Assembly: GCF_000025925.1 (NCBI RefSeq)
Contig: NC_014033.1
Location: 2,700,001 to 2,732,000 of the forward strand
DNA from: Xylanibacter ruminicola 23
GTDB lineage: Bacteria; Bacteroidota; Bacteroidia; Bacteroidales; Bacteroidaceae
Direction of reading: 5' to 3'
Length of the DNA: 32,000 nucleotides
Shown piece by piece: positions 125 to 24,105 of this stretch. The position numbers were made by a program, and so were the translations under genes. Numbering within the stretch: the stretch's first letter is position 1; each line of letters opens with the position of its first letter. Below the pieces are notes generated by a model that ran no database searches, was not told the origin of the DNA, and saw only the letters and a program-made list of their open reading frames with translations.

Positions 125-810
125 ACGAGAAACTGAACATTAATCAGTGGGCCGAAGAGGATCGTCCTCGCGAAAAGATGGCTACGCAGGGTGCCGAGGC
201 ACTGAGCAGCGCAGAGCTATTGGCCATACTGATTGGTTCGGGTTCAACCAAAGAGAGCGCCGTAGATTTAATGAAGCGCATCCTGGCCGACTGCAACAAC
301 AGTCTGAACACCTTAGGCAAGAAATCCATTCACGACCTGTGCCAGTATAATGGCGTGGGCGAGGCCAAGGCCATCACCATCCTGGCAGCCTGCGAACTGG
401 GCAAGCGCCGACAGATGGAAACACCCGAGGAGCGTCCCGATTTAGGCACAGCCACTCGTATCTACAACCACATGCACCCAGTGATGCAGGATTTGGACGT
501 AGAGGAGTTCTGGGTACTGCTGCTTAACCAGCAATACCGACTCATCAAGAAACTGCGTATTGCCCGTGGCGGCATTACCGCAACAACAGTAGATATACGC
601 CTCATCATCCGCGAGGCAGTACTCTGCAACGCCACACAGCTGGTGGCATGTCACAACCACCCATCGGGTGGCATCACACCCAGCAAACAGGATGATGAGT
701 TAACCATCAGCATCATGAATGCCTGCAAGCTGATGGACATCCACTTTGCCGATCACGTCATCGTTACCGATGGCCACTACTACAGCTACCACGAACAAGG
801 AAAATGCTAA
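121..810 (+). CDS. radC: RadC-family (UPF0758) JAB/MPN domain protein
   Basis: Has the N-terminal HhH-like segment (EDRPREKM...LSSAELLAILIGSGS) and the JAMM-type motif LVACHNHPSGG...PSKQD. Start moved to the ATG at 121 (MNEKLNINQW) rather than the ORF-track start at 58. Confidence 0.9.
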   Translation: MNEKLNINQWAEEDRPREKMATQGAEALSSAELLAILIGSGSTKESAVDLMKRILADCNNSLNTLGKKSIHDLCQYNGVGEAKAITILAACELGKRRQMETPEERPDLGTATRIYNHMHPVMQDLDVEEFWVLLLNQQYRLIKKLRIARGGITATTVDIRLIIREAVLCNATQLVACHNHPSGGITPSKQDDELTISIMNACKLMDIHFADHVIVTDGHYYSYHEQGKC

Positions 811-831
811 GATTGATATTCCAACAAAGAA

Positions 832-1524
832 TTACGGGTTATCCTTCGTTGGAATATGATCAACCCTCTCCAAACGGAAACCATAGCCCTTCTTCTTTTT
901 AGTAGGAGGAGTATCCGTGGACTTTGATGAACGCTTACGAGTCGACTTATTTCGGTTCACAGCTTTCGACTGCGGATTTTGCTGAGGCGTAACCTTCGGC
1001 TTTTCCGGCTCTGGTTCTGGCACAGAAACCTCAACTGGCTCAGGTTTAGGTTCCTCAACTATCGCTGGTTCTTCAACAGGTTCTGTAACCTCTTGTTCTG
1101 TTTCTGGTTCAGCAATAGTCTCAGGTTCTGCGACTGGTTCTGATTCCACTATTGTACTATCAGCAACAGCTTTTACCTGATGACCATCGTCATCAATTCC
1201 CATGCATGTACCGAGTCCCCAAAGTAAGGCAATGATGACGACAATACCAACAACCAGTATCAAGCATCCACGTTTTAGAAATTTTCCAAGTCCACCGAAC
1301 AGTGAAACGATGCCTGTACCCAGTGAGATTATTCCAGAGAGTCTTGGGAAAAACCTTGTAAGACTTGGCAATAGGGCGTTAAGTCCCGACAGGGCACTAC
1401 TGTTCCCAGCCTTATGCTTCGAGGTTCCACCTTTAGCTTTTTGTCTACGCTTCGGCTGATAGTTAGGATTGGGTTCAAAGTTGCTTTCCACCCAGAAACC
1501 CTGACCATTTTTATTCTCTTCCAT
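832..1524 (-). CDS. Hypothetical membrane protein with Glu-Pro / Lys-Pro low-complexity rod and basic tail (last gene of cassette A)
   Basis: ATG at 1524 (MEENKNGQGFW); the track start at 1557 is a TTG. Basic N-terminus, a Gly-rich amphipathic segment plus a strong hydrophobic helix (GCLILVVGIVVIIALLWGLG), then EPVAEPETIAEPETEQEVTEPVEEPAIVEEPKPEPVEVSVPEPEPEKPK and a K/R/S-rich tail. Starts 22 nt after the giant A stop. Confidence 0.7.
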   Translation of the reverse strand: MEENKNGQGFWVESNFEPNPNYQPKRRQKAKGGTSKHKAGNSSALSGLNALLPSLTRFFPRLSGIISLGTGIVSLFGGLGKFLKRGCLILVVGIVVIIALLWGLGTCMGIDDDGHQVKAVADSTIVESEPVAEPETIAEPETEQEVTEPVEEPAIVEEPKPEPVEVSVPEPEPEKPKVTPQQNPQSKAVNRNKSTRKRSSKSTDTPPTKKKKGYGFRLERVDHIPTKDNP

Positions 1525-1546
1525 ATAGAATCCTTTGTTTATACGT

Positions 1547-4500
1547 TTACTTTGCAATCTCCCAACTCTTAGCTGTAGTTATCCGCTTCATGCAGGCACC
1601 CATATCGTCAGCGAATTGGTAGAAACTATAGTTCATACTACGGAAAGCTCGCTGTATCTGGTCGATAGAGACCGTCGATCCAGCCTTGAACATATCCTCA
1701 ACCATCTCCACTGCCTCACGCATATGCTGCGGAATCATGCTTGTACCGTTGACTTTATAACGGGCAATATCATAGGGCTTGACGAAGTTGTTGAACTCTT
1801 TGGCCATCTGGCGCAGACCTTCCATATACTCGTTTACGGCCTCGCTCTGCACGAGCAGTCGTTCTGCTTCGTTGGTGATGGTTTCTGCCTCCTGTAGCAA
1901 CTTCTCTGCCGATTGAAAACGGTCATAACCCTTGAAGGTCATGGCATCACCCACCTTGGTTGGGTTAGTGAGTGCCTCACCATGACGACTCTTATCTGCA
2001 AGTTTCTCCCAATCGATGCCGAAACTCTCATTATCATGCAATACGTCTTGGATGACAGTCTGATCCTTACCCTTGGCATACCTGCCATATACCTCAGCAG
2101 ACGATGCAGACGAATCCGCAATCACATTCGATTTCGACGTGAAACGTCGAGTCGTCTCGTAGAAGTTGCGGTTATAGACTTCTACCACCTCTTCATGGGG
2201 CAGATAATGCGTCACATTGTTCTCGTCAACGAAATAATAAGTAATGTCACGGTCCATCGTAATGGTTTTGCCACTAGCCAGCATGTCAGCTTTCGACGAT
2301 GTGGCATTCATCACCTGTATCTTTCTGCCAGGATACTTCTTCGACAACTCCGCAATACTCTTGGCATCAGTAATCTCATAGATATTCTTCAAGGTGCCGT
2401 TCAATTCCTTGCGGACAACATCGTACTTCGAGCTGGCATTCTTCAACATATACATGGCTTGCTTATCGCCTTGTACCTCCAGAATCAGACGGTTCTTCAG
2501 AGCTACATTCGTCCATTCACCATTTTGTTCCGCCATCTCAATGGCAGCTCTCAGGTTCTTCACCTTCTCAGCAGCATTGGCACGTCCTGTCGCCATCGCT
2601 TTGTCGAGGTTCAAATCACCTGGCAAACGTGGCGCATTCTTGGCAGCATTCAGACGCATCTCCGCTACCGAAGAAGCACGACGCGTAGCCTCCAGGCTCT
2701 TCTCCGCCGACTCACGCAACAGCCAACCCTTTAAGGTGTTGTACGGCTTTTCGAAGCCCTTCTTGGCATTCTGTATAGCCTCACGCATACCTTGACGGGT
2801 AAGGTTCTTGGCCTTTATCGTGCTGGCGGCGCCAGTGGCACCCAGCACCATGAATGCACCGTTCTTGATGCCTATCCAGAACATCTTGAGCATGCTGTCG
2901 CCGTTCTTGTCGTAAACATACTCACGAATCTCTTCGGCAAAATCAACGGGCATAAAGATAAGTTCTGAGAGGCCCCAAGAGCCGACACCAGCAACAATAC
3001 GTCCAATAAAACCAATGTCTTTCTCCACCTGTTTTATGGCTTCGAACCACCACTCCAACTCATCCTTAATGCCTAACTCTGGTGGCAGTTCCTCGTCCAC
3101 GCCACCGATGTCACCCATGACCAAACGGGCATACGTGCTTCGGATACGATTAACGTTGCGCTTATCATAACCATAGGTAGCATCATAGCCTTCAATCTGC
3201 ATTTCGGTATATTTCACCAACGGGAACATGCGGTTCAATTGTCCTGTCTGGACGACTGACTCGATGATATGCATCAAGCGGTCGTAGGTATGTTGGTCTT
3301 CCTTCATGAAGGCCTCGGCACTATTCATATCCAGGACTTCACGACGAGGCTGCGATGCCAGACGTATAGCATGAGTACAAGTGTAGATCTTTGGCTCTGG
3401 ATTGTTCGGACCCTGATATTCCACCTTAATAATACACTCGGCATCAATACGGTTAGGCGCATCGAGCACACCCTTCAAACTACGAATGAGGCAGAGGCGT
3501 CCCTCGTCGCATCGGTCGGTCAGTGCTTCCATCTGCAGCCCCAACTTATCCACAAACTCCTGTTTCGACTCGTCCTTAGCCTTCACGGTAAATCCATCCT
3601 TGCGCAATGGAATAGGAGAAATCTTCAGCAGGGTGTTGCGAGAGATATCATAATCATAAAGCGTAAGAATAGCCTGATTCTCCTGCGACATATACTGCTT
3701 GCCACCAGCCTTGATACGTAGTTCCGGACGGGTGCGATGTTTCATCGGATCATACTTTGTGATGTAACAACCTATCTCACCCTTGTCCTTAAACTCCACC
3801 GCCAGGCCCATGTAAAAGCGCAGCACAGGCAATGTACCTTCAAGCTTGGTGCCACGATCGTTCTTTGCCTCCACATGAAGCGTATAGGTGAGGTACTGAC
3901 CTGGGATGCCCTCATCCTTTGCAGGATCTTTCACATTATCGAGAATACGCGCAAAATGATGTTTTTTCTGGTCATCCCAATAAACATCTACGCCATAGTC
4001 TCCTTCGTTTCCTTCACTATCTGTGATGTAGGCTGTTACGCCATTCTCACCCTCAAAGCCAGGAACGAGGAAAGGCAGTTCCAAAACAGACTCATACTGA
4101 GCGGGGATGGTCAGATTCTCCTGTCCGAACTGTATTTCGCCTTTTTCAATGCGGAAGTGAACACGGTTGGTATAAGTACCCCTATCAACAGAAAGGCGGA
4201 ACTTCACGACGCCCTCTTCGGGCGGATTATCATCCTGTGGGGCCGAAACGAAACACGAACGCCAACCATTTACCATACCATCGTCCTCCACTTCAAGGTA
4301 ATTATCAGCAGAAGTAATCTCGATTTGTCGGGTCAGATTCTCATCCACCCATTCGCCTCCCTTGGCAGGATGACGCACGATACAAGCACTAACGCGCTGT
4401 GCAACATCGCCACTTATCAATGTACCATCGAAGTCTTTGTAGAACTTCATCTCCAACTGGTCAGGTTCTTCTTCGTCATCATCTTCCTCGTCGTCATCAT

Positions 4501-5389
4501 TGTCATCCGAGTTGTCCTCGTCTTGTTGGTCTTTAGCGTTTGCTTTCCGTCTCTTTCTGAGTTTATTGATAAGATGAGTCAGGTAACCGATGATACCAGC
4601 ACCGACGGCAATAGGAATGGCTGTTCCCCACGGTCCTTTTTGATCAGGCGCATCCGTATCATCCTCTGCACTGGCTGTTATATCGCCTTCGCTGACTTTT
4701 ACTTCTTCAACTTCTCCAGAAATATAAAGATACTGACCGCTTAGTGCACCATCATATTCGCCCCACTTGTATTCTATTACATCTGGGTTATGATAATCTG
4801 CAAGGGTTGTACCTGTAAGAGGCTTACGCGTCAGCTTATCCCATTTCAGTCCAATATTAACAGAACCATTACTGGTGAAGCCTGCATTGATAAAAAAGCG
4901 GATAATACCAGCAGTTTCGAACCAAGGTTCCTGACTGGCAGACAACACATAGTCTTTTGTTGCTTTATATCCAGTCTCAGTGCCATCAATTTTTACGGCT
5001 ATATCAAAATGAAGGTTTGTAGGGCTAACCGTCACATTGCCGACGGGCAAGAGTGCGAAATGAGGAGAGCCACCATAAGTTGCGCGTTCCACCTTACACT
5101 TTCCTTTAACCGTGATGGCCGGGAGTTTAGCTGTATACACCTCATAATTGGTCTTTCTGGTAACTGTCTGGGCAGGAATGGTTATAATGAATTCATCATT
5201 CGTTGCCCAGAAATGAGCTTTCCCAGAAAAGCCTCCCCATCCCTCTCCGTCATTCACGTTGAACTCCTTCAGTTTGAAGTCCATATCAATCAGGGCTTTC
5301 TTTGAGTCGCCACTAGCCCATGCACCTAAGGGCATCAGGAGTGCCAATGCCGTCAGCAGGGTTTTGAGATATCTCCTAATTTGAGTCAT
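1547..5389 (-). CDS. Giant A: 1280-aa single-pass membrane protein, unknown family (paralogue of 7769-11797)
   Basis: Uninterrupted 3.8-kb ORF with an ATG start. Signal peptide MTQIRRYLKTLLTALALLMPLGAWASG, TM helix AIPIAVGAGIIGYLTHLI, then KLRKRRKANAK and DEDNSDDNDDDEEDDDEEE. About 1000 aa of C-terminal sequence align in many blocks with the second giant. Confidence 0.85.
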   Translation of the reverse strand: MTQIRRYLKTLLTALALLMPLGAWASGDSKKALIDMDFKLKEFNVNDGEGWGGFSGKAHFWATNDEFIITIPAQTVTRKTNYEVYTAKLPAITVKGKCKVERATYGGSPHFALLPVGNVTVSPTNLHFDIAVKIDGTETGYKATKDYVLSASQEPWFETAGIIRFFINAGFTSNGSVNIGLKWDKLTRKPLTGTTLADYHNPDVIEYKWGEYDGALSGQYLYISGEVEEVKVSEGDITASAEDDTDAPDQKGPWGTAIPIAVGAGIIGYLTHLINKLRKRRKANAKDQQDEDNSDDNDDDEEDDDEEEPDQLEMKFYKDFDGTLISGDVAQRVSACIVRHPAKGGEWVDENLTRQIEITSADNYLEVEDDGMVNGWRSCFVSAPQDDNPPEEGVVKFRLSVDRGTYTNRVHFRIEKGEIQFGQENLTIPAQYESVLELPFLVPGFEGENGVTAYITDSEGNEGDYGVDVYWDDQKKHHFARILDNVKDPAKDEGIPGQYLTYTLHVEAKNDRGTKLEGTLPVLRFYMGLAVEFKDKGEIGCYITKYDPMKHRTRPELRIKAGGKQYMSQENQAILTLYDYDISRNTLLKISPIPLRKDGFTVKAKDESKQEFVDKLGLQMEALTDRCDEGRLCLIRSLKGVLDAPNRIDAECIIKVEYQGPNNPEPKIYTCTHAIRLASQPRREVLDMNSAEAFMKEDQHTYDRLMHIIESVVQTGQLNRMFPLVKYTEMQIEGYDATYGYDKRNVNRIRSTYARLVMGDIGGVDEELPPELGIKDELEWWFEAIKQVEKDIGFIGRIVAGVGSWGLSELIFMPVDFAEEIREYVYDKNGDSMLKMFWIGIKNGAFMVLGATGAASTIKAKNLTRQGMREAIQNAKKGFEKPYNTLKGWLLRESAEKSLEATRRASSVAEMRLNAAKNAPRLPGDLNLDKAMATGRANAAEKVKNLRAAIEMAEQNGEWTNVALKNRLILEVQGDKQAMYMLKNASSKYDVVRKELNGTLKNIYEITDAKSIAELSKKYPGRKIQVMNATSSKADMLASGKTITMDRDITYYFVDENNVTHYLPHEEVVEVYNRNFYETTRRFTSKSNVIADSSASSAEVYGRYAKGKDQTVIQDVLHDNESFGIDWEKLADKSRHGEALTNPTKVGDAMTFKGYDRFQSAEKLLQEAETITNEAERLLVQSEAVNEYMEGLRQMAKEFNNFVKPYDIARYKVNGTSMIPQHMREAVEMVEDMFKAGSTVSIDQIQRAFRSMNYSFYQFADDMGACMKRITTAKSWEIAK

Positions 5390-5401
5390 AGCATAACGGT
5401 A

Positions 5402-5848
5402 TTATTCGGTTGCTTTATACATTTTCCATTGACTATGGGGCAATACCAAGAAGAAACCCTGCGTCTGGGTATTCTGTGGTCCCATCTCTCCATGCAATCC
5501 CACTTTCTTTGAACCTTGGGAAATCTGTGCAGGAGTGGCAATGGAGAATTTCAGGACGCCTTTTGTCTCAGCATTCAACTTCTTAACCATATTCTCTGCC
5601 TGCGTCCTTGTAACTTTTGCAGCCTTCGTGACACTGGTACCAGCAGAATGAGCCTTCGAGCCAGTGGCAGCCCAGTATTCATTATAAGTAACGGGGGTAG
5701 TAGTGATAGCATATTGAGTGCCAACAGGTCTCATACGAACAATCAGATTATACAGTGTTTTCTCACGCTGCTCTTCAGACATACCTTGAGCATTCACTGC
5801 TGTAACAATAGCAACAAGTGCTAATAATGTAATAACTAACTTTTTCAT
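5402..5848 (-). CDS. Small secreted protein (signal peptide ending VNAQ), unknown function
   Basis: ATG at 5848 (MKKLVITLLALVAIVTAVNAQ); the track start at 5878 is a TTG inside the upstream gene's end. Its stop lies 12 nt upstream of the giant A start. Confidence 0.7.
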   Translation of the reverse strand: MKKLVITLLALVAIVTAVNAQGMSEEQREKTLYNLIVRMRPVGTQYAITTTPVTYNEYWAATGSKAHSAGTSVTKAAKVTRTQAENMVKKLNAETKGVLKFSIATPAQISQGSKKVGLHGEMGPQNTQTQGFFLVLPHSQWKMYKATE

Positions 5849-5874
5849 AATATTTATAGTTTTATTTGTTAATA

Positions 5875-6417
5875 TCAATCACGTGGTCTTACAATCCAGA
5901 CTGGTTTCTCTGTAGTTTTCAGACTATCAGTTGCCGTTCTGGTAGAATATCTCCAACTATCATACCCCCAATGATAACCTGTGTAATTTGGACGACTAAC
6001 ATTATAAAGGTTGAATGCAACTTTATTCCCATGATCATAGATGTAACCTGAGAATCTGTTGTCGTCCAAGCGATAATCGCTAATCTGAATAGAGGTCCCT
6101 TCCTCGATGAATTTTACATAGATATCACCGAAATCTACTCTCCAGTCAATATGATTGGCCACATAATCCCACGGAGCATCGCTATAGTAATCTACCCAAT
6201 AGCCAGATCCACTCGAATATGCATACGGGTCTTTCAAAAAGGTAACCTCCGTATAAGTGGCATCATAGTATCTTCCATCCCACTCCGACGATATATACAT
6301 GTCACCTTTCCATGTTCCCTCAAGAGTTCTGGCAATTTCTTCATCATCGCATGAGGTGAGTGAGACCGCCATCAGTCCCAGCATTGCCATCAATAATCGA
6401 TTAAACTGTTTCTTCAT
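5875..6417 (-). CDS. Lipoprotein, lipocalin-like-domain type (tentative)
   Basis: Signal peptide plus lipobox (MAVSLTSC). The mature part starts ...LEGTWKGDMY, the GTW motif typical of Bacteroidota lipocalin-like lipoproteins, and is Tyr/Trp/Asp-rich and beta-like. Confidence 0.7.
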   Translation of the reverse strand: MKKQFNRLLMAMLGLMAVSLTSCDDEEIARTLEGTWKGDMYISSEWDGRYYDATYTEVTFLKDPYAYSSGSGYWVDYYSDAPWDYVANHIDWRVDFGDIYVKFIEEGTSIQISDYRLDDNRFSGYIYDHGNKVAFNLYNVSRPNYTGYHWGYDSWRYSTRTATDSLKTTEKPVWIVRPRD

Positions 6418-6442
6418 ATCTTTATAGTTTTTGGTTTGTTAT

Positions 6443-6979
6443 TCACTTGTCTGGCTCAACGGGTGGCTGATTCATGCCATTATGATCGTAGTAAAGCACA
6501 GTACCGCAGAGATCGCAATAGTTCTCGCCTGCAACCCCTTTATTATGGCAACATGCACAATCCAACTCATCACCAACTGCAGCTTTTGCATTATTCTTAC
6601 GGTGAACCGCCGGCACTGCCAAGGCTTTAGACAAGAAATACCACGCAAGCCACACTACCCAGAACGAGCAGAGAATCATACATATCTTCTCATACACACC
6701 TTCGTCATAATTATCTATCATATAAATGACGCTCAGAACGATTACTGCTGTGATGATGCTTCCGATGATGTATTTAAACAGGAAACGAACAAACGTAAAA
6801 TGGAATGGACCCAGACCTACATGGGGCGAGATACGCTTGTTGACGGGGTAGCTAAACTTACTGTGTTTGGCGGTTCCATTATATCGTGCACCACAATGCG
6901 GGCAGAATTTCTTCCCTAAATGAACACGCTTCCCGCAGTGCCAACAGAACATATTTCCATAACCGATGTATTTATGCAT
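6443..6979 (-). CDS. Zinc-ribbon membrane protein (first gene of cassette A)
   Basis: N-terminal CxxC-N10-CxxC (CWHCGKRVHLGKKFCPHCG) with no signal peptide. Two hydrophobic helices (IIGSIITAVIVLSVIYMI; ICMILCSFWVVWLAWYFL). C-terminal second Cys cluster CACCH...CDLCG. TATATTTG -7 box lies 24 nt upstream. Confidence 0.75.
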   Translation of the reverse strand: MHKYIGYGNMFCWHCGKRVHLGKKFCPHCGARYNGTAKHSKFSYPVNKRISPHVGLGPFHFTFVRFLFKYIIGSIITAVIVLSVIYMIDNYDEGVYEKICMILCSFWVVWLAWYFLSKALAVPAVHRKNNAKAAVGDELDCACCHNKGVAGENYCDLCGTVLYYDHNGMNQPPVEPDK

Positions 6980-7002
6980 AATAACTAGGTTTGTTTATTT
7001 CG

Positions 7003-7010
7003 CAAATATA
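7003..7010 (-). promoter_or_regulatory. Bacteroidota -7 promoter box (TATATTTG) for cassette A operon
   Basis: Exact match to TAnnTTTG on the minus strand, 24 nt upstream of the ATG at 6979. Confidence 0.5.
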
Positions 7011-7030
7011 GGGAAAAAGTCTGACTGCGT

Positions 7031-7082
7031 TACTTACAAAAATCGTAAAAAGACTATCAATTCTTGCATTGTAAGTCGTTTT
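7031..7082. repeat. 52-nt promoter-upstream element, copy L1 (degenerate hairpin; homologous to 14771-14822)
   Basis: Ungapped alignment with 14771-14822 gives 41/52 identical positions. It starts exactly 21 nt from the -7 box in both loci. Contains ACTTACAA and GACTATCAA 21 bp apart plus an inverted TTGTAAGTC. Confidence 0.75.
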
Positions 7083-7118
7083 AGCCCCATCATTATTGCT
7101 TTTCTTGGATATTAGCGG

Positions 7119-7126
7119 TAAATTTG
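7119..7126 (+). promoter_or_regulatory. Bacteroidota -7 promoter box (TAAATTTG) for cassette B operon
   Basis: Exact TAnnTTTG, 25 nt upstream of the ATG at 7151. Confidence 0.5.
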
Positions 7127-7150
7127 CGGAATAACTATAGGATTCACGAT

Positions 7151-7747
7151 ATGAATAAGATTTTTTGTTTTGCAACTGTTCTGCTAATGGCTTGCGGTCC
7201 TACCCCATCCCAGCAGATAACTAACGATGCCGCTAATATCGAAGAGGATGCCGTTAAACATCTTCATGCAGTATTAAATAGTGCCAAGGGACACATGATG
7301 AGCGCCACAGAACTGGCTCATCAAGACGGCTATCAAAACAATAGTGTTTTTGTTGTCAATATCCCTACCACGGATGCTGACGAACTTCCATTGTTTGACA
7401 CACCTTACATCGATGATGCAACAGGCAGCACTATCGTCTTCCATCAAGATACTATCAAGGGAGACACCATCTGCCCCATTGGCACAGCCGACCTTCGGAC
7501 AGTTATACATGATTGGGAGCAGCAAGCACCAGATACAACAATAAATTATCGTGTGCATGCTCGAGGTAATGGCCTTTACACCTTTTATAATATCAAGCAC
7601 AAAGGTTGCCATTGCCTGAATCACGACAAGCATCCCGATGGATTCCCAGAGTATGCAGAATGCATCGTCTGGATAAAGCCAGGCAGCAAGGAGCTCCTCA
7701 TTACCTGGGGCTACAAACGCTCAGAGAAAACCTATCATACAAAATAA
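7151..7747 (+). CDS. Lipoprotein, unknown family (paralogue of 12405-12971)
   Basis: ATG at 7151 (MNKIFCFATVLLMAC, lipobox). Shares TGS[TS]IVFHQ and Y.V..RG.GLYT[FL]YN blocks with the 12405-12971 lipoprotein. Confidence 0.8.
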   Translation: MNKIFCFATVLLMACGPTPSQQITNDAANIEEDAVKHLHAVLNSAKGHMMSATELAHQDGYQNNSVFVVNIPTTDADELPLFDTPYIDDATGSTIVFHQDTIKGDTICPIGTADLRTVIHDWEQQAPDTTINYRVHARGNGLYTFYNIKHKGCHCLNHDKHPDGFPEYAECIVWIKPGSKELLITWGYKRSEKTYHTK

Positions 7748-7768
7748 GAACTAAAAACACCTAAGACT

Positions 7769-10700
7769 ATGCTTAAAACAATATTCCAGAGACACCTAAT
7801 AGTTATTATAGCCCTTTTCTTTATTTCTGCTGCTATGGCTCAAGAAAAGGCTCATTGGGAACTGATAGATGTTGAGGTTCAGACTCCTCCGGCAAAATAT
7901 GAGTCAAGAGGATCGATGAGCCCTGACAATAATGTCGAGGTAACTTATCGTCTTAGCCGCGGTTCCATCTACATCCAGAAAAAAGTTGTTGAAAGATGTT
8001 TATCAAATTATAGAGACGACCCTGTCAAGCAAAAAAAATGGACTTTAGCACACGACCATAAAGGTGAGACCGCTACAGGACAGTTCATCATCAGTGGACT
8101 TCCAGAAAACATCTATGCTGATAAAGAGGTCGTCTTAAGAGTTTCTTTTACAGCCAACACCAGCTGCCCTCATGGAGATTTATTTGGTATCATAGCACAA
8201 ATCACAGCTATTGACGGCCTCAACAAAGCAAGCGTTAGAGGAAGTTCCAAAATACTTCCAACTTGTAATCAAGAAAAAAACGGGAATATTTCCGTAAGAG
8301 ATTATACGAATGCTATTTTGCGAAAATCTGGTGATTATGGAGAATGGAATGTACCATTTAATATACCTGGCGCACGTATGGATGGAGATCAGACATACCG
8401 ATATATAGGAATCGCTCTAGCAAGATCTTCTTGGGTTTCACAGCCCGAAACACCAATTGTATATTTCAAATACAAGTTCATAAAAGGTGAGAAAGCAAAG
8501 AACAATGACACCCCTACTGATGAAGACGACACGCCAGAATATATTCCACCCTATGAGGAAGATAACGATGCTTCTGACGAGGAAGGTATCTGGAAGTATA
8601 TCATACCGCCATTTGTTGCAGGTGGTCTGGTAGGCTGGTGGAGAAACCGCAAAAAGAAAAAGAAGCAGCAGAAGGATGATGATCCTGAACCAGAACCCGA
8701 AGAGGAGGAAAAGGAAGAGGAGGAAGATGATGAACCCGATCAGCTGCAGATGCAGGTATATAAAAACTTTGGCGATACACTACTTGTTGGTGATAAAGGT
8801 CAGCAGGTAAATGCCCTTATTGTCCGCAAGCCAAAGAAGGGTCCTGAATATGTGGATGAGAATCTGACTCGCCAGATTCAGATTATGAGCGGAGACGAAT
8901 ATCTGCACGTAGAGATGGGCGATATAGAAAACGGTTGGAAGACTGCCTACGTATGGGCACCGGAAGCAGAGAACCCACCTCAAGAGGGAATCGTGAAGTT
9001 CGTGTTGGCCAACGAAGGTGCCAGCTATACCAACCGCCTGCACTTTAAGGTAACCAAGGGTGAAATCATCTTTTTCCAAGAGAACCTTACGCTACCGGCA
9101 TGCTTCGGCCCTGAAGCAAGATTACCATTCTTAGTTAATGGCATTGAAAAAGAGAAAGCCAAGATAACTGCAGCTATCCTTGACATAGAGAATAAACCTA
9201 CCAACGACTACCGCATAGATGTGAAATGGGACGAAAAGAAACAATATTATTTAGCAAACATTAACGACCAACTTCAGGATAAAGAAAAAGACAAAGGTGT
9301 GCCTGGTACTTATGCTACATATGCTATCGAGATTGTTGCAGATAATCAGGACGGGGTTATTATTAAAGGATACCTGCCACTATACCGTTACTACATGGGC
9401 TTGGTATTGGATATTAATCCCAATGTTGCTTGCTATTTGGAGGAGCAGGATCCCATGCGCCACGAACTGCAGCTTCCAAAGGTAAATCGTGATGGCAAGG
9501 AATGCAGGCCAGCAGAGAACCGATGCACATTGAAGCTGTATGACTGGGATGATGAAACCAACGAACTGCTGGTTATTGATCCACGACCTGAGAATATTAT
9601 TTGGAATGTACGCGATGACGAGGGACTGCTAAAAATCGAACTTGATGAAGGTATGGACTTAGATAATTCTGTGGCAGAGCGCCGTCAACGTCTTATCGAA
9701 TACCAGAAGATGCTGGACGCTTTGGGCTTGCAGCTCCAGCCACGATACAATGAAACTGTTGGTCTGTACTATATGCTCTACTGTCGTACAGGTGTGCTAA
9801 ATGCGCCCAACCGCTTCGATGTGGAGTTTGAGATTAGTGCATCCTACCAACCCAAAGACCCCAAGAAACCGAAGATACAAAAATTCAAGCGTGTTGTTCA
9901 CCTACTATCTCAGCCAAAGCGCGAGTTCGCGAGCTACGAAGCAAGAGTGGAAGCAGTGAAACGTGAACGCAAGATAGAAGATGAACTGCGACAATTGGAG
10001 GATGATATCTATATGGCAGGATTAAATGATCGCCTGGCTCCCTTGTTGTTCTTCATTCGCCTGCAAATTGAATTCTATAAAGAAGAGTACGGTTTCTACG
10101 AACGCAATATCAAGGCCATTTACACCACATACCAGCACGTTATGGAAGGCGTTGGACAGGAGGCAATAGAGCGTGCTGAGGCCTGTGACGACCTGGAGCA
10201 GATGACATACGAATGGTTGGAGAGTGCTCACCAAACGATAGAAGACATGCCCCTTGCAGTACGCATTGGCATAGGTTTCGCAACACTGGGCAGTTCAGAG
10301 GCTGCTTTCATGTGTATTGAGGTTCCATACAGCATGAAGAAATATGTTGATGCGGGTGGAAATAGTGTTTACGAGATGTTTAAAGTTGGTGTTACGCCAG
10401 TAGTCAAAGCTTATCTTTTCGAGAACACCTTTAAAGCTGCAGCTTCCGCAGTCAAAATATTCGGAGGTGGAGCCATTAAAGGCGCAAAAGGTTTAGGGAA
10501 AATGGCATGGAATGGCACTATGTCGAGAAAAGCAGTAACGGAGTTTGGTACGCAACTTGGCAAAGGCATGTTAAACGAAGTGAGCACAGGACTGAAGGCT
10601 TGGACAAAAACACAGTTTGGCTGGCAGGTAGGCATGGCAGAAAAGGCTGCAAGGAAATCGGCATTAAGCCTGCTAGAAGAAGGTAAGCAAATAGCTAAGG

Positions 10701-11797
10701 GGAGCCGCTTCAATGCTGCTGAATTATATGGCAAGAATCGTGCTACCCGCAATATACAAGACCTGATGGCGGCAGTAGAGCTATACGACAGTTGTCCTTC
10801 GGTTGAGAATTTCCTGTTGCGTAACAGGATGATTAAAGCATGTCAGGGTGACAAGCGCACCATGTTTATGCTCAAGAATACAGAGCAGCTACTTGCCAAT
10901 CAAAATAATAAGGCGATAGGCAATCTGCTTATCAACAATACGCGAATGCAATTCAACAAGACACTAAAAGGAGTCTACTCACAAGCCGGTAAAGAGTCTA
11001 TCAAAGAACTGGCTAAAGAAACGGGTATTAACCCCGCCATGATCAGAATCAAGAATGCCACGTCATCGAACATCGACGACCTACTGTCAGGAAAGACCGT
11101 AACTTTCGACAACGACATCACATTCTATTATATAGACAAAAATGGCGTAACGAGGTATTTCGATCAAAAGCTGACGGAAAGAATATACAACGCGAAATTC
11201 CGCGAGGCGTTAAATGCCATAACACTACCTAAGAATGCCGCTGGTATAGGCATCAAACCTACAGCTGCACAACTTTTGAAAACTCAAGAACTGGCTGACC
11301 GTTTGGCCAAACACATGGACCAGACAGTAATTGAGGACATTCTGAAACATCATGAGAGTTATGGTGTGGATCTGGAGAAAATGATTGTTAAGGCACTGCA
11401 TGGCGAGGGGCTAAGTAATCCTAAGAAGGTGGCCGATGCTGTATTGCACAAGGGGTTAGACCGCTTCAATTATGCTGCAAAACTTATTAATGCTGCTGAT
11501 GAAATTACAGATAATATACTCAAAAACGAGCTGAAGGCTACAGCTATTGGTGAGATTATGGAGGGTTGTCGCCAACAAGTAAAAGTATTCAAACTGATAG
11601 AGTCGCGCGATATTATGCGGAACTTCACGAGTAAGATTCCCACTAAACTTCGCGAGGCAATAGCCGTTATGGAAGAGATGACATCCAAGGGCAATGCATC
11701 GCTCGGTGAAGTGGAATATGCGTTGCAGCAGTTAGGCTATAATTCGTTTGAGAGCGTCACAAAAGCCGTGTCTGACTTAGTCATAAAAGTAGGATAG
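7769..11797 (+). CDS. Giant B: 1342-aa single-pass membrane protein, unknown family (paralogue of 1547-5389)
   Basis: Uninterrupted 4-kb ORF. Signal peptide MLKTIFQRHLIVIIALFFISAAMAQE, TM IIPPFVAGGLVGWW, then RNRKKKKKQQK and DDDPEPEPEEEEKEEEEDDE. The cytoplasmic region aligns block-wise with giant A. Confidence 0.9.
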   Translation: MLKTIFQRHLIVIIALFFISAAMAQEKAHWELIDVEVQTPPAKYESRGSMSPDNNVEVTYRLSRGSIYIQKKVVERCLSNYRDDPVKQKKWTLAHDHKGETATGQFIISGLPENIYADKEVVLRVSFTANTSCPHGDLFGIIAQITAIDGLNKASVRGSSKILPTCNQEKNGNISVRDYTNAILRKSGDYGEWNVPFNIPGARMDGDQTYRYIGIALARSSWVSQPETPIVYFKYKFIKGEKAKNNDTPTDEDDTPEYIPPYEEDNDASDEEGIWKYIIPPFVAGGLVGWWRNRKKKKKQQKDDDPEPEPEEEEKEEEEDDEPDQLQMQVYKNFGDTLLVGDKGQQVNALIVRKPKKGPEYVDENLTRQIQIMSGDEYLHVEMGDIENGWKTAYVWAPEAENPPQEGIVKFVLANEGASYTNRLHFKVTKGEIIFFQENLTLPACFGPEARLPFLVNGIEKEKAKITAAILDIENKPTNDYRIDVKWDEKKQYYLANINDQLQDKEKDKGVPGTYATYAIEIVADNQDGVIIKGYLPLYRYYMGLVLDINPNVACYLEEQDPMRHELQLPKVNRDGKECRPAENRCTLKLYDWDDETNELLVIDPRPENIIWNVRDDEGLLKIELDEGMDLDNSVAERRQRLIEYQKMLDALGLQLQPRYNETVGLYYMLYCRTGVLNAPNRFDVEFEISASYQPKDPKKPKIQKFKRVVHLLSQPKREFASYEARVEAVKRERKIEDELRQLEDDIYMAGLNDRLAPLLFFIRLQIEFYKEEYGFYERNIKAIYTTYQHVMEGVGQEAIERAEACDDLEQMTYEWLESAHQTIEDMPLAVRIGIGFATLGSSEAAFMCIEVPYSMKKYVDAGGNSVYEMFKVGVTPVVKAYLFENTFKAAASAVKIFGGGAIKGAKGLGKMAWNGTMSRKAVTEFGTQLGKGMLNEVSTGLKAWTKTQFGWQVGMAEKAARKSALSLLEEGKQIAKGSRFNAAELYGKNRATRNIQDLMAAVELYDSCPSVENFLLRNRMIKACQGDKRTMFMLKNTEQLLANQNNKAIGNLLINNTRMQFNKTLKGVYSQAGKESIKELAKETGINPAMIRIKNATSSNIDDLLSGKTVTFDNDITFYYIDKNGVTRYFDQKLTERIYNAKFREALNAITLPKNAAGIGIKPTAAQLLKTQELADRLAKHMDQTVIEDILKHHESYGVDLEKMIVKALHGEGLSNPKKVADAVLHKGLDRFNYAAKLINAADEITDNILKNELKATAIGEIMEGCRQQVKVFKLIESRDIMRNFTSKIPTKLREAIAVMEEMTSKGNASLGEVEYALQQLGYNSFESVTKAVSDLVIKVG

Positions 11798-11817
11798 TAC
11801 ATTAAAAATAGCATAAT

Positions 11818-12426
11818 ATGAGCGAAGATATTAAAAATGGTATTAAGTTATGCCCAGATGGCAAGTACCGTTGGGCCTATGAGGTAAATATGTATCGGAA
11901 CCCAACCATCTTCTATGTGATAGCAAACATGTTCCTGATCTGCTATCTGGTATGCGTTGTGCTCTTCTCGGTCATCAATTTCTGCTTGGACGAGGAGGTG
12001 CTATCATCCATACTGATGTTGACGGGTGTGTTTTTGTTCCTCTTCCTGATCACCATTCCAGCCTATCTGGTTATTGCAGCCATCATGGGAGGCACCTATG
12101 CCGCCCTGTTTGTGATGGACGAAAATGGTATTGAGCACCATCAGATGCCCAAGAAAGTTAAGAAACTTCAGCTGATCAATACCATTGGCGGTTGGATGGG
12201 AGCAGCCAAGGGCGACCTGAGCATGGTGGGACTATCCCTCTTTTCATCTGGTGTACAAGTCACCAAGACAGATTTCAAGAATGTTCGTTTAGTAAAGACA
12301 GCCCCTCGCCGCAATCTTATCAAGCTCACAGAGGCATGGTACAGTTGGAACCACATCTATGTGGATGAAGAGGATTACGACTGGGTTTGCCAATACATCA
12401 AAGATCACTGCCCAACGGCATCATAA
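11818..12426 (+). CDS. Two-TM membrane protein with C-terminal soluble domain, unknown function (last gene of cassette B)
   Basis: ATG 20 nt after the giant B stop. Two long hydrophobic helices (IFYVIANMFLICYLVCVVLFSVINF; ILMLTGVFLFLFLITIPAYLVIAAIMGG) followed by a ~90-aa hydrophilic tail. Confidence 0.75.
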   Translation: MSEDIKNGIKLCPDGKYRWAYEVNMYRNPTIFYVIANMFLICYLVCVVLFSVINFCLDEEVLSSILMLTGVFLFLFLITIPAYLVIAAIMGGTYAALFVMDENGIEHHQMPKKVKKLQLINTIGGWMGAAKGDLSMVGLSLFSSGVQVTKTDFKNVRLVKTAPRRNLIKLTEAWYSWNHIYVDEEDYDWVCQYIKDHCPTAS

Positions 12427-12971
12427 TCTGTAGCAGTTCTAAAGAAAGTCTGCTGTGTTTCCTGGCTACCACGAGTAACAATAATACTATCAGCACCAGG
12501 AAACACATATACTAATCGTCCTTCAAAACGAGCTTCCTCATTATTATATAAGGTATAGAGGCCTTTTCCGCGAGATTGCACTACATATTGTGCAGTACCC
12601 TCCAAACTGTCAGCAGGCATACCCCAATGATTCTCTCGCAAAGCAATGGTTACGGTAACACTTGAGCCGTTCTGATGGAACACAATACTACTACCTGTAG
12701 AGGAGGAAACATAAAGTTGACCAGTTTTAGGCAACGCGTTTTCATCTGTAAGCGGCAAATGAATTTCGCAACCAGCCCCTCGCAACTTATCAGCAAAACC
12801 AGGCGTCATCTCAGCCAGCTGGTCAGCTGTCATCTTCTGTCCCTCTTCACTATTTAAGAGCGTCTCTAACTCATTCTGCGCATTAACATACGACGGATGA
12901 CAGGCTGTTAGGATAGTACTAACAACCAATAACATCGTGATTAATTCAAGTAATTGATAAAAATTCTTCAT
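12405..12971 (-). CDS. Lipoprotein, unknown family (paralogue of 7151-7747)
   Basis: Lipobox (VVSTILTAC). Its ATG overlaps the upstream stop by 1 nt (TAATG at 12969-12973). Shares motifs with the 7151 lipoprotein. Its 3-prime end overlaps the convergent gene 11818-12426 by 22 nt. Confidence 0.8.
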   Translation of the reverse strand: MKNFYQLLELITMLLVVSTILTACHPSYVNAQNELETLLNSEEGQKMTADQLAEMTPGFADKLRGAGCEIHLPLTDENALPKTGQLYVSSSTGSSIVFHQNGSSVTVTIALRENHWGMPADSLEGTAQYVVQSRGKGLYTLYNNEEARFEGRLVYVFPGADSIIVTRGSQETQQTFFRTATDYDAVGQ

Positions 12972-14293
12972 TAGTTCAATATAAATTTATCTGTGGCACC
13001 AGCAGAAGATACTAGGATAGTATGACCATTATCGAGTACCACCACATGGCAGCGTACAAATTCATCGTCCTTCTTTGTTAACGAGTAAGCACTATGACCG
13101 AACGACTTGACAACATAATTTTCGGTGAGGTTGATAGTACCGCGATAGATGTGCTGAGCTGTACCAGTGATTGTGCCATTACTATGTTCTTTTACATCGA
13201 AAATCCATCTCTGAGAGTCTCTATCAGTATATAATTTCCCCGGCAACTTATTTACATCAATACATTTCACCGAGTTGTCCCATGCACCGTCTTGACCAGC
13301 ATAAAAGCCATCGTGAGCATAGTTATTCTTCATGCGACAGCCACTAGCATCTACATAATAAAATTTACCGCCATCCTTTATCCATATACTATGGGCATAG
13401 GTACCACTTGGATAGATATAGACCGTCTCACCTGATTGCAGTGTTTCCCATTTACCTTTATCCGATCCTGCCGTGATGGCATAGCGTGCTGGTGTATAGC
13501 TGGGATCGGTACTGCTGACAGCCTCTGAGAAACTCTCGGCAGATTGGAATATCACCTCTACACCTTTGCTTGATATACGTACCTTCTCTGCGCCAGGATA
13601 GATATAGAGCTCAGCATCGGGAGTCATTCCATCCGACTTATAAAGCGTAAAGTGCCCCTTACCTGAGGGGCTTATCTTCACGATATCATGTCCCTTAGTA
13701 TCGTCTGTTGAGAAATAAACGACATATACAGGTTCGGAACTACTCTCACTTTTGGCAAAACCAATCTTTGTATTAAGTTCTCTGTTGATATACTCCTTCC
13801 CAATAGGGAGTGTTTCTTCACCATTCTCTTCTGAAGCTTCACTATCCTTAGATAAGGATACACCTGAAACACCTACAATATTAATAGTATCCTCTGGAGT
13901 TTCAATGCTGTCTAAGATGCCCCTGCTTTCTTTTTCATCATCCTGATAAAACAGGTAGGCCATAATTCCACTACAGACTAGGAAAGCAACCAACAGAACC
14001 AAACACCCTTTGAGCATGCACCCCCTCGACAAAGAACCAGGAGTGCTACTACGCTCAACATACTTACTCTTTGGTTTGGGCTCTGACGACTGCGAGGCGG
14101 GACGAGGCTCATATGGTGGAGGTACAGATCCTCTATGTTCGCGCTTTGGTTGTTTAGGCGATTCCTCATCAGGTTCAAGGTCGAACACAAGAGGAGGAGG
14201 TGTTGACCGTCTTACATCCATACGGGCACCACAACCACCACAGAATTTCACATTGTCATCATTGGAATGACCACACTTTTCACAAATTGCCAT
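12971..14293 (-). CDS. Zinc-ribbon - Pro-rich linker - TM - exported domain protein
   Basis: N-terminal CEKCG...FCGGCG zinc ribbon, Pro/Ser-rich linker, TM GCLVLLVAFLVCSGIMAYLFY, and a ~320-aa exported part. The exported part contains a copy of the lipoprotein domain (SPSGKGHFTLYKSDG...LYIYPGAEKVRISSKG) and one cell-wall-binding-repeat-like stretch (WIKDGGKFYYVDASGCRM). Confidence 0.8.
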   Translation of the reverse strand: MAICEKCGHSNDDNVKFCGGCGARMDVRRSTPPPLVFDLEPDEESPKQPKREHRGSVPPPYEPRPASQSSEPKPKSKYVERSSTPGSLSRGCMLKGCLVLLVAFLVCSGIMAYLFYQDDEKESRGILDSIETPEDTINIVGVSGVSLSKDSEASEENGEETLPIGKEYINRELNTKIGFAKSESSSEPVYVVYFSTDDTKGHDIVKISPSGKGHFTLYKSDGMTPDAELYIYPGAEKVRISSKGVEVIFQSAESFSEAVSSTDPSYTPARYAITAGSDKGKWETLQSGETVYIYPSGTYAHSIWIKDGGKFYYVDASGCRMKNNYAHDGFYAGQDGAWDNSVKCIDVNKLPGKLYTDRDSQRWIFDVKEHSNGTITGTAQHIYRGTINLTENYVVKSFGHSAYSLTKKDDEFVRCHVVVLDNGHTILVSSAGATDKFILN

Positions 14294-14312
14294 AAGTTAT
14301 AGCATTTTATAA

Positions 14313-14720
14313 TCAATCTTTTGTGTTGACATTAAACACAGACTCTGTCTCAGAAGAAGAGTTGTTATTCTTCTTGTTATTGGAAGTTTTCTTTTCGAGC
14401 AGTTTCTTTTTTACTGCTTTATCTGCTTCTTTGCGATCAATTTTAGACAATGATTTCTTTGAAATCTCATCTATTGCTTGCGCTCTGATCTTGTCAGCTT
14501 CCTTCTTTTCACTAACAGTGACAGAGTATTTATACTCACCGAGATTGTCGCCATTAGAATTAGTCCAGATTTTCACACCATTCTTAATGGTGGTGTGAAC
14601 CCCAGGAGCCTTATCGTTAACCACATACTTATATACAAGCGCTCTTTCTTTGAGCGATTGGGCATTAACACCAGCTACAAAAGCCATCAAGGTCGCCACA
14701 CATAATAGAATCTTTTTCAT
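14313..14720 (-). CDS. Small secreted Lys-rich protein (signal peptide ending VNAQ), first gene of cassette C
   Basis: ATG at 14720 (MKKILLCVATLMAFVAGVNAQ); alternative ATGs at 14726 and 14729. TATCTTTG box at 14743-14750. C-terminal K/N/S low-complexity region. Confidence 0.65.
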   Translation of the reverse strand: MKKILLCVATLMAFVAGVNAQSLKERALVYKYVVNDKAPGVHTTIKNGVKIWTNSNGDNLGEYKYSVTVSEKKEADKIRAQAIDEISKKSLSKIDRKEADKAVKKKLLEKKTSNNKKNNNSSSETESVFNVNTKD

Positions 14721-14742
14721 AAGCATCATATTTTTTGTGGGG

Positions 14743-14750
14743 CAAAGATA
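14743..14750 (-). promoter_or_regulatory. Bacteroidota -7 promoter box (TATCTTTG) for cassette C operon
   Basis: Exact TAnnTTTG on the minus strand, just upstream of the 14720-14729 ATGs. Confidence 0.5.
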
Positions 14751-14770
14751 GCCATAATAGCCCATAAAGC

Positions 14771-14822
14771 GACTATCAAAAATTGCAAAACGACTGACAA
14801 TTCTTGTTTTGTCAGTCGTTTT
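14771..14822. repeat. 52-nt promoter-upstream element, copy L2 (homologous to 7031-7082)
   Basis: 41/52 identity with L1 in the same orientation and the same 21-nt distance from the -7 box. GACTATCAA (14771) and GACTGACAA (14792) are direct repeats 21 bp apart, with an inverted TTGTCAGTC at 14809. Confidence 0.75.
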
Positions 14823-14824
14823 GC
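14785..14824 (-). terminator. Rho-independent terminator of the AraC-type gene (perfect 16-bp stem, 8-nt loop)
   Basis: GCAAAACGACTGACAA-ttcttgtt-TTGTCAGTCGTTTTGC. On the minus strand it is followed by AATTTTTGA. The stem overlaps the regulator's TGA stop (14812-14814). Confidence 0.75.
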
Positions 14825-16516: not shown

Positions 16517-16580
16517 CGAAATAATTCCATATCTGAACAAAAAAGGAAAGATTTTCTTTTGTCCTGAGAATGTTTTTTTG

Positions 16581-16588
16581 TATCTTTG
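16581..16588 (+). promoter_or_regulatory. -7 promoter box (TATCTTTG) for the DUF59-lpxH operon
   Basis: Exact TAnnTTTG; only 8 nt separate it from the ATG at 16597. Confidence 0.45.
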
Positions 16589-16596
16589 CAGCGATT

Positions 16597-18808: not shown

Positions 18809-18816
18809 TATCTTTG
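18809..18816 (+). promoter_or_regulatory. -7 promoter box (TATCTTTG) for the sugar kinase gene
   Basis: Exact TAnnTTTG, 19 nt upstream of the ATG at 18835. Confidence 0.45.
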
Positions 18817-18834
18817 CAGCGAAGTTATCAGATA

Positions 18835-24074: not shown

Positions 24075-24105
24075 ATTTAATGTTTAATCTTTAATGTTTA
24101 ATGTA

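Follow-up and report, generated by a model that had tools for sequence, protein, structure and literature searches.

We analysed a 32,000-nucleotide stretch of the Xylanibacter ruminicola 23 genome (NC_014033.1, positions 2,700,001 to 2,732,000), hereafter the window. Two of its genes, A and B, encode large members of a bitopic inner-membrane protein family that had not been described before and that occurs in anaerobic gut, rumen, and digester bacteria. Paralogue A lies at 1547-5389 on the reverse strand (1280 aa) and paralogue B at 7769-11797 on the forward strand (1342 aa). Segments were assigned from the open reading frame (ORF), translation, motif and segment coordinates, and hydrophobicity for A, and from the ORF, BLASTP, and segment coordinates for B. 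In both proteins, the order is signal peptide, ectodomain, one transmembrane helix, a Lys/Arg (K/R) run, an Asp/Glu (D/E) run, and ~970-1,020 conserved residues.

In A (reverse strand), the signal peptide (5315-5389, residues 1-25) is followed by a variable ectodomain (4631-5314, residues 26-253), the transmembrane helix (4568-4630, residues 254-274), the charged runs (4466-4567; K/R 275-286, D/E 287-308), and the conserved, predicted cytoplasmic part (1550-4468, residues 308-1280). In B (forward strand), the signal peptide and ectodomain together occupy 7769-8590, the transmembrane helix 8591-8641 (residues 275-291), and the charged runs 8642-8734 (K/R 292-302, D/E 303-322). These are followed by a part resembling immunoglobulin (Ig) domains (about 8732-9925), a helical part (about 9926-10435), and a C-terminal domain (10436-11794).

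The two proteins are 35% identical by BLASTP (383/1099 identities, E 4e-180), confirming that they are paralogues, with a sequence relationship far beyond chance. The alignment begins just N-terminal of the transmembrane helix (A residue 242, B residue 263), and the ectodomains, of ~230-250 aa each, are unrelated and were left unaligned. An initial annotation of the window, made from the letters alone, had described two divergent paralogues of one architecture. This description was borne out: both ORFs are exactly as it gave them, and every motif block that it listed was found in both copies. The blocks comprise EPDQL.M, VDENLTRQI, NPP.EG.VKF, YTNR.HF...KGEI.F.QENLT.PA, LP..R.YMGL, and GVL.APNR.D, and further along SQP.RE, QGDK..M.MLKN, NATSS...DxD.ITxY, DQTVI, and HGE.L.NP.

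Immediately C-terminal of the transmembrane helix, both proteins carry 6-9 K/R residues, and by the positive-inside rule the large conserved part is therefore predicted to be cytoplasmic. The helix of B is only weakly hydrophobic (Kyte-Doolittle mean over 19 residues below 1.2) and was assigned by homology to that of A. Relatives in which a zinc ribbon and an extra transmembrane helix replace the signal peptide point to the same arrangement, with the N-terminus inside, the ectodomain outside, and the conserved part inside. The cytoplasmic location proposed in the initial annotation is thus reinforced as a prediction.

Family distribution and mosaic alleles

We searched 1.84 billion cluster representatives (clusters at 50% identity) with a profile of the cytoplasmic part using HMMER. 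The family comprises at least 753 clusters at E≤1e-3, 226 of them at E≤1e-30; an initial word-indexed search had yielded 14 relatives. In nearly all of the full-length matches listed, the conserved block is preceded by a variable N-terminal part of 230-770 aa, which in one protein reaches 1,307 aa; the hypervariable domain placed outside the cytoplasmic membrane measures ~230-700 aa. A CxxC...CxxC start followed by one or more transmembrane helices is present in 11 of 122 full-length representatives, and Pfam Zn_Ribbon_1 was found at the N-terminus in 10 of 32 diverse members scanned. A and B themselves have no N-terminal zinc ribbon and begin with a signal peptide instead. Some short database entries match the C-terminal part alone; these appear to be gene-call fragments rather than independent domains.

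The family spans Bacteroidota (Prevotellaceae) and Bacillota (Clostridia) from rumen, gut, and digesters. Named members come from X. ruminicola, Ruminococcaceae YRB3002, Saccharofermentans, Clostridiales, Lachnospiraceae, Thermoclostridium, and Ruminiclostridium, and are labelled "zinc-ribbon domain-containing" or "hypothetical". The family recurs on many metagenome contigs, and single clusters at 90% identity hold up to about 240 member sequences. Orthologues of A that are 96-98% identical occur in Xylanibacter (Prevotella) ruminicola D31d and in the metagenome-assembled genome Prevotella sp. UBA2456, with the product given as hypothetical or uncharacterised. A phage or plasmid origin was not supported: tblastn searches of 50,697 phage records yielded no homologue, and a plasmid collection gave one marginal match, in a 2.6-Mb "plasmid" record. 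Across the 32 diverse members, YR..MGL, P.R, SQP.R, GYD, DxD, the glycines of a hydrophobic segment, and two lysines near the C-terminus are invariant or nearly so.

Conservation inside the cell is accompanied by extreme variability outside. Per-site amino-acid heterozygosity among 60 close orthologues of A was 0.33 in the ectodomain (159 of 225 sites polymorphic), 0.03-0.05 in the Ig-like array, 0.000 at residues 761-890, and 0.011 in the C-terminal domain. The ectodomain is thus about 30-fold more polymorphic than the C-terminal domain.

Alleles of B are mosaic (database proteins are denoted here by P numbers and related loci by L numbers). Relative to P0001, B is 92-100% identical from residue ~300 on, 72% identical in the 50-residue window before that point, and 14-28% identical in the ectodomain, which in P0001 is of the A type. 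Relative to the UBA2456 allele at the same site, B is 96-100% identical over residues 50-400 and 24-48% identical beyond 430. P0006 and B have the transmembrane helix, linker, and first Ig-like domain alone in common. The B position is especially prone to allele replacement among close strains: flanking genes are 87-100% identical, and the adjoining downstream gene, T, is 92-94% identical despite the replaced C-terminal block. Taken together, these comparisons show exchange, by recombination, of the ectodomain and the distal cytoplasmic block around a near-invariant cassette of transmembrane helix, linker, and first Ig-like domain.

In X. ruminicola D31d, the B position is occupied by a 761-aa gene (L002, 5000-7285). 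The first ectodomain module of this gene shares 44-49% identity with its counterpart in B and is followed by a second exported module, a transmembrane helix, and a cytoplasmic tail of ~260 aa that is K/E- and Gly-rich and unrelated to B. This gene would represent a different "output" on the same kind of ectodomain. L014, a Prevotella-like contig that is more distantly related, retains the A-type gene and the divergent layout of two genes; its second position holds another allele class.

We also considered variation driven by repeats. A 16-nt inverted repeat (7103-7118/7230-7245; 94% complementary, 111-nt spacing) brackets the start of the lipoprotein gene upstream of B. An invertible promoter at 7103-7245 is unlikely because the right arm lies inside coding sequence. 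Apart from this pair, only short repeats, probably due to chance, were present.

Structure of the cytoplasmic part and search for relatives

The cytoplasmic part of A (973 aa) was modelled with AlphaFold2 from a 10-sequence alignment, giving a mean predicted local distance difference test score (pLDDT) of 76. The C-terminal 396 residues were modelled separately from 13 sequences. The first 375 cytoplasmic residues (residues 308-682; 3344-4468, reverse strand) form three to four tandem beta-sandwiches in the model, with block pLDDT mostly 80-92 (range 72-94). Foldseek matches to the whole model were dominated by generic tandem-Ig arrays such as the S-layer proteins SbsC/EA1, cadherin, and titin (E 2e-8 to 4e-6, about 230-510 aligned columns, query TM-score ≤0.14, 7-14% identity). 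The beta-rich part is therefore not exotic and, as modelled, appears to be a string of generic Ig-like sandwiches.

The helical region that follows (residues 683-884; 2738-3343, reverse strand) contains the GYD motif, a Gly-rich helix pair that is presumably buried, and a flexible K/A-rich linker. Residues 381-450 of the cytoplasmic model are confident helices, residues 453-582, covering the helix pair and the linker, are of low confidence, and residues 590-965 are confident again. The helix pair (about 792-853, peak 794-816) is moderately hydrophobic; the helices contain charged residues, and their hydrophobicity is below the normal transmembrane level.

The C-terminal domain (residues 885-1280; 1550-2737, reverse strand) gave a well-defined model (pLDDT 88.3, predicted template modelling score 0.83) with five long helices, a small four-stranded sheet, and another helical bundle. 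It holds the family-invariant DxD (MDRDITYY, 2234-2257), the NATSS loop (2294-2308), DQT (2048-2068), and two invariant lysines. Foldseek returned no match at E≤1e-3 in PDB or BFVD, with best TM-scores of about 0.25, and on the scope of these two databases the modelled domain may provisionally be regarded as a new fold. The initial annotation's expectation of about three beta-rich modules and a ~580-aa helical region was close to the modelled three to four modules and about 590 mostly helical residues. As for novelty of structure, the beta-rich part has a known fold and the C-terminal domain is unmatched in PDB and BFVD.

Sequence searches with A and B in Pfam, NCBIfam, PADLOC, and PHROGs gave only sub-threshold noise, for example PIMT_C in B only (21.5 bits against a 22.9-bit cutoff) and LPD14 (E 0.09). 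Sub-fragments of both proteins likewise gave only sub-threshold noise against Pfam, with A residues 683-884 lacking any match at E≤10. PDB sequences yielded nothing, either by direct search with A and B or with a 10-sequence profile. A Pfam scan of the 32 diverse relatives detected zinc ribbons only, with nothing on the ~1,000 conserved residues and no S-layer homology (SLH) domain, LPXTG anchor, or type IX secretion system (T9SS) C-terminal domain. No histidine kinase, cyclase, chemoreceptor, or anti-sigma domain was found in A and B (Pfam, NCBIfam) or in the relatives (Pfam). Weak Foldseek matches to SMC/Rad50/ABC ATPase heads (probability 0.2-0.4, E 0.5-1.1, TM-score ≤0.19) were set aside, A and B having no P-loop family match in Pfam or NCBIfam.

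We found no description of the family in the literature. The earlier statement that A and B fall in no recognisable enzymatic family thus held across Pfam, NCBIfam, PADLOC, PHROGs, PDB sequences, the Pfam scan of 32 relatives, and the Foldseek searches of PDB and BFVD. As no defining feature of a known family that was tested proved clearly present, the family stands, by exclusion, outside every described kind of system, its sequences being already in databases as hypothetical proteins.

The order of motifs around the invariant DxD raised the possibility of a nucleotidyltransferase. The motifs of Pol-beta nucleotidyltransferases are hG[GS], [DE]h[DE]h, and h[DE]h. The family consensus is N-A-[ST]-[GS]-x~12-D-x-D-x-[TS], and the AlphaFold2 model places a strand, the [ST][GS] loop, a short helix, the DxD strand, and later a [DE]-Q-T strand in that order. 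The likeness to Pol-beta enzymes is one of motif order only, and the spacing and flanking residues are atypical. For the C-terminal domain, the 50 matches listed from each of PDB and BFVD include no nucleotidyltransferase. When 28 core sequences were scanned against Pfam, no match recurred, and a PDB profile search gave nothing relevant. Against an ANT(3'')/AadA-family profile assembled from real database matches, hhalign gave a probability of 1.2% and did not align the motifs. A Pol-beta assignment is thus unsupported. We also considered the DxD region as a HAD (DxDxT), Toprim, GT-A, or ABC-signature motif. These readings were abandoned because the sheet in the model consists of no more than four short strands, with the motifs in the wrong elements.

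Operons and partners at the window and related loci

A and B are embedded in a 14-kb block of envelope-protein genes (832-14765) organised in three tight operons. The first, on the reverse strand, begins with a zinc-ribbon membrane protein (6443-6979, 178 aa; Zn_Ribbon_1 E 5.5e-7), a homologue of which is 80% identical in the syntenic locus L014. It continues with a lipoprotein (5875-6417, 180 aa), which has an 82% identical homologue beside another family member in L011, and a small exported protein directly upstream of A (5402-5878, 158 aa). A is followed, with an 11-nt overlap, by a 241-aa membrane protein with a Pro/Glu/Lys-rich, TonB/TolA-like exported linker (832-1557). L014, L001, and L002 each have a homologue of this protein downstream of the A-type gene (41% identity in L014, 98% in the other two); the matches of the window protein, to TonB/TolA and PD-T4-6, are of low complexity only.

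The second operon, on the forward strand, consists of the L lipoprotein (7124-7747, about 200 aa) immediately upstream of B, B itself, and, 20 nt downstream, the T protein (11818-12426). T is a 202-aa protein with a conserved CPDGKYRW.YE..N.NP head, two transmembrane helices, and a cytoplasmic tail, for which nothing exceeded thresholds in Pfam, NCBIfam, or PADLOC. The third operon, on the reverse strand, comprises a small exported protein (14313-14765, 150 aa), a weak paralogue of 5402-5878 (27% identity, E 4e-4), then a second zinc-ribbon membrane protein (12971-14293, 440 aa; Zn_Ribbon_1 E 2.7e-6) and a second L lipoprotein (12405-12971). This zinc-ribbon protein has choline-binding-like repeats (Choline_bind_2 E 1.7e-5, 25.4 bits, under the 27-bit cutoff) in its exported domain, a domain that recurs in L007 and L014. 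The second L lipoprotein is a paralogue of the first (26% identity, E 1e-19) and is 38% identical to L004 7102-7713.

The flanks are ordinary, with RadC (58-810), a regulator with Kelch and AraC domains, an Fe-S assembly protein, and pta-ackA. Promoter and terminator scans were at background level except for a strong hairpin at 14778-14831, formed by a 23-nt inverted repeat with 91% complementarity and a loop of 8 nt. This hairpin scored as a terminator on both strands and lies between the AraC-type gene and the 14313-14765 operon. The regulator (14812-~16500, reverse strand) is predicted to be a one-component transmembrane protein with a signal peptide, a Kelch beta-propeller, a transmembrane helix, and a cytoplasmic AraC-type helix-turn-helix (HTH) domain (HTH_18 E 3.6e-18, Kelch_1 E 1.2e-7). 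Its 742-aa ORF, extending to 17040, overlaps the opposite-strand Fe-S assembly gene (16570-16917), so the true start is probably internal. Another AraC-HTH gene lies at the edge of L007. Two further forward-strand ORFs in the window, 29051-31105 (684 aa) and 19937-20623 (228 aa), have no Pfam match at E≤1e-3 and adjoin metabolic genes, namely a pfkB kinase (18814-19866) and pta-ackA (22881-25116).

We compared neighbourhoods across 15 distinct loci. In most of them a zinc ribbon accompanies the family protein: it is fused to that protein in L010, L015/16, L017, and L019, whereas in the window, L001, L002, L007, L011, L013, L014, and L018 a neighbouring membrane protein carries it. L004 has a ribbon-less homologue of the zinc-ribbon membrane protein, and L012, which has only a homologue of that ribbon-less protein, is the clear exception to the association. 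In the window, L001, L002, L007, L010, L013, L014, and L019, T or a homologue is the first or second gene downstream; at three of these loci it has an N-terminal zinc ribbon of its own. The L lipoprotein is found upstream of family members in the window, L004, L007, L011, and L014. In L007, residues 525-722 of the 756-aa zinc-ribbon neighbour (3730-6000) are homologous to the ectodomains of the family members P0132, P0097, and P0152 (26-27% identity, E 1.5e-7 to 5e-5). This homology suggests that ectodomain cassettes may be drawn from a shared pool.

In Ruminococcaceae YRB3002 and Thermoclostridium, the homologue is encoded by a lone gene surrounded by unrelated housekeeping genes, and a zinc ribbon and extra transmembrane helices are fused into the protein. 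The fused Firmicute versions stand alone, which indicates that the large protein can operate without separate partner genes; the partnership in these forms may be internalised rather than absent. The initial annotation had put A and B forward as the candidate core of an undescribed, dedicated system. The recurring zinc-ribbon protein, ~200-aa lipoprotein, and two-helix T protein speak for that proposal. The stand-alone genes, being homologues that occur without these neighbours, speak in part against it, and the claim of a dedicated system is only partly supported.

None of the findings marks the family as the core of a defence system. PADLOC (PADLOC-DB v2) gave no match for A or B, and for 10 neighbours a single one, PD-T4-6, on a low-complexity Pro/Glu/Lys-rich stretch; no phage homologues were found; and the surroundings are mostly housekeeping genes, with no recurrent known defence genes around the fetched loci. 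Toxin-antitoxin genes occur near three loci (PIN in L014, ParE in L013, RelB in L012).

Several other genes were observed at two of these loci. Directly downstream of a family member in L011 is a 1223-aa protein (10377-14048) with no BLAST similarity to A or B, which has a Gly-rich N-terminal module with multiple transmembrane helices, an exported domain, a transmembrane helix, and a different Gly-rich helical cytoplasmic part. By eye, and with no alignment made, its N-terminus resembles that of the Firmicute member P0078 (LT[FY]AQGG ... G.GIK.LF). A soluble protein of ~260 aa, 42% identical between L007 (6577-7395) and L011 (14577-15350), has an acidic C-terminal domain with a CDGNYTARER-type motif and no Pfam match. 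Upstream of the L011 cluster (278-3340) are Sel1-repeat caspase-like (Peptidase_C14) and Peptidase_C1/DUF4384 proteins, after which come a 183-aa lipoprotein and a DUF2207 gene; L007 has a LemA/DUF2207 pair.

Possible role and comparison with known systems

From the topology, the domain layout, the contrast between a conserved inside and a hypervariable outside, the modular recombination, and the association with zinc-ribbon and T proteins, we tentatively favour a modular outside-in membrane sensor or transducer that works with zinc-ribbon partners, a reading that we regard as plausible rather than probable. The variable, replaceable ectodomain, periplasmic in Prevotella and wall-facing in Clostridia, would bind a fast-evolving extracytoplasmic ligand. 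The signal would cross the near-invariant juxtamembrane cassette of transmembrane helix, K/R and D/E runs, and first Ig-like domain. The conserved cytoplasmic machine, with its zinc-ribbon and T-protein partners, would then give one common output. Judging from the modelled C-terminal domain with its invariant DxD and lysines, this output would most plausibly be metal-dependent catalysis or regulated assembly or binding at that domain.

Several points weigh against a sensor or transducer. No output domain of a known signalling type was found in A and B (Pfam, NCBIfam) or in the 32 relatives (Pfam), and the locus has no consistent link to a regulator, the adjoining Kelch-AraC gene being set off by its own hairpin. 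Ectodomain variability could reflect relaxed constraint and recombination instead of ligand-driven selection, and the invariant DxD and lysine residues could be structural. The AlphaFold2 models were built from shallow alignments of 10-13 sequences with a 130-residue middle segment unmodelled, and a structural relative among cellular proteins beyond PDB and BFVD is possible.

Among the alternatives, a passive tether or scaffold, in which a cytoplasmic assembly of Ig-like domains and coiled helices is anchored to the envelope without sensing or catalysis, is unlikely, though less so than the others. It might, for instance, organise membrane domains, or a trans-envelope complex that includes the lipoproteins and the TonB-like Pro-rich protein. 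The resemblance of the Ig-like arrays and long helices to S-layer proteins, titin, and cadherin, the lack of a detected catalytic family, operons rich in lipoproteins with a TonB/TolA-like Pro-rich spanner, and the location of several loci among housekeeping genes are all consistent with such a role. It leaves unexplained, however, the wholesale exchange of non-homologous ectodomains and of deep cytoplasmic allele classes between strains otherwise 88-100% identical, the invariance of DxD and lysine across two phyla, and the patchy cross-phylum distribution typical of accessory genes. If the Ig-like array were instead an exported adhesin or a surface-layer-like structure, the predicted topology would be wrong; this is very unlikely. 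Tandem Ig-like sandwiches are typical of extracellular proteins, Foldseek returned S-layer proteins and cadherin, and the transmembrane helix of B is weak, but the signal peptide and transmembrane helix are followed directly by 6-9 K/R residues. Variants ordered zinc ribbon, transmembrane helix, ectodomain, transmembrane helix give the same orientation, and no cell-wall anchor, SLH domain, or T9SS C-terminal domain was detected by Pfam in any of the 32 members.

An envelope conflict or defence module could also be suggested by the mosaic, hypervariable alleles found at one fixed position in the chromosome, by the expansion of paralogues, and by spread across phyla. The ectodomain of such a module would detect a phage or an injected toxin, and its Gly-rich helix pair or C-terminal domain would kill or arrest the cell, as in abortive infection. 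The toxin-antitoxin genes near L014, L013, and L012 and the caspase-like and Sel1 genes in L011 would fit such a function. We nevertheless consider it improbable in view of the PADLOC results (negative for A and B, one low-complexity match among neighbours), the 50,697 phage records without a homologue and the single marginal plasmid match, the mostly housekeeping neighbourhoods without recurrent known defence genes, and the charged hydrophobic helices, which fall below normal transmembrane hydrophobicity.

The sharp recombination breakpoint after the conserved cassette, with distal blocks 24-48% identical, and a small gene always next after the large one recall a polymorphic toxin with a conserved N-terminal carrier, an exchangeable C-terminal effector, and an immunity or partner gene downstream. 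The exchangeable part is, however, predicted to be cytoplasmic in the producer and not exported, and no secretion-system marker or toxin domain was detected by Pfam in A, B, and the 32 relatives. The T gene, 92-94% identical beside a replaced C-terminal block, does not covary; this largely refutes a toxin-immunity pair, the reading to which we give least credence. We see a slim chance that the C-terminal domain is an unrecognised metal-dependent nucleotidyl- or phospho-transferase and the family a new receptor-enzyme class. In that event, a hypervariable extracytoplasmic sensor would control nucleotide-signal synthesis or target modification in anaerobes of two phyla.

Prevotella and Clostridia dominate rumen and gut communities, yet many aspects of their envelope biology are uncharacterised. 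The family is real and large, strongly conserved inside the cell and hypervariable outside, and it offers mutational handles in the DxD, the invariant lysines, ectodomain swaps, and the T partner. If its members are sensors or transducers, they would provide a new route for reading the surroundings, such as phage, competitors, glycans, or host factors, and also a strain-level marker locus. If structural, they would point to an unrecognised membrane-associated cytoplasmic assembly.

Several known systems resemble the family in part. Polymorphic toxin systems of the Rhs/CdiA type swap alternative C-terminal blocks after a conserved junction and have a small downstream gene (PMC3482391). In contrast, the variable block of A and B is predicted to be cytoplasmic, lacks a secretion signal or toxin domain, and is accompanied by a downstream gene that does not covary. 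Tandem Ig arrays such as those of SbsC/EA1, cadherins, and titin share a fold-generic similarity with A; the known ones are extracellular or sarcomeric, whereas the array of A is predicted to be cytoplasmic. Membrane proteins with the Pfam zinc ribbon PF13240 (Zn_Ribbon_1) share the ribbon itself (10 of 32 relatives), the flanking neighbours, and the ectodomain pool with the family. However, ordinary PF13240 proteins lack the ~1,000-aa cytoplasmic region, A and B lack the ribbon, and PF13240 proteins are themselves functionally uncharacterised.

To our knowledge, it is uncommon in bacteria for a type-I topology to be combined with a cytoplasmic Ig-like array and with a terminal domain that is well folded yet has no relative in PDB or BFVD. 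Bitopic sensors include ToxR/CadC-type regulators, RsgI-type anti-sigma factors, and eukaryotic type-I receptors. The bacterial ones have the N-terminus inside (type II) and small DNA- or sigma-binding domains, whereas A and B are predicted to be type I, with a cleavable signal peptide and the C-terminus inside. Their cytoplasmic part spans about 1,000 aa and contains Ig-like repeats, and searches of it revealed no HTH, kinase, cyclase, or anti-sigma domain. What bitopic sensors and this family have in common is a variable extracytoplasmic module, a single transmembrane helix, a conserved cytoplasmic module, and exchange of the sensing part.

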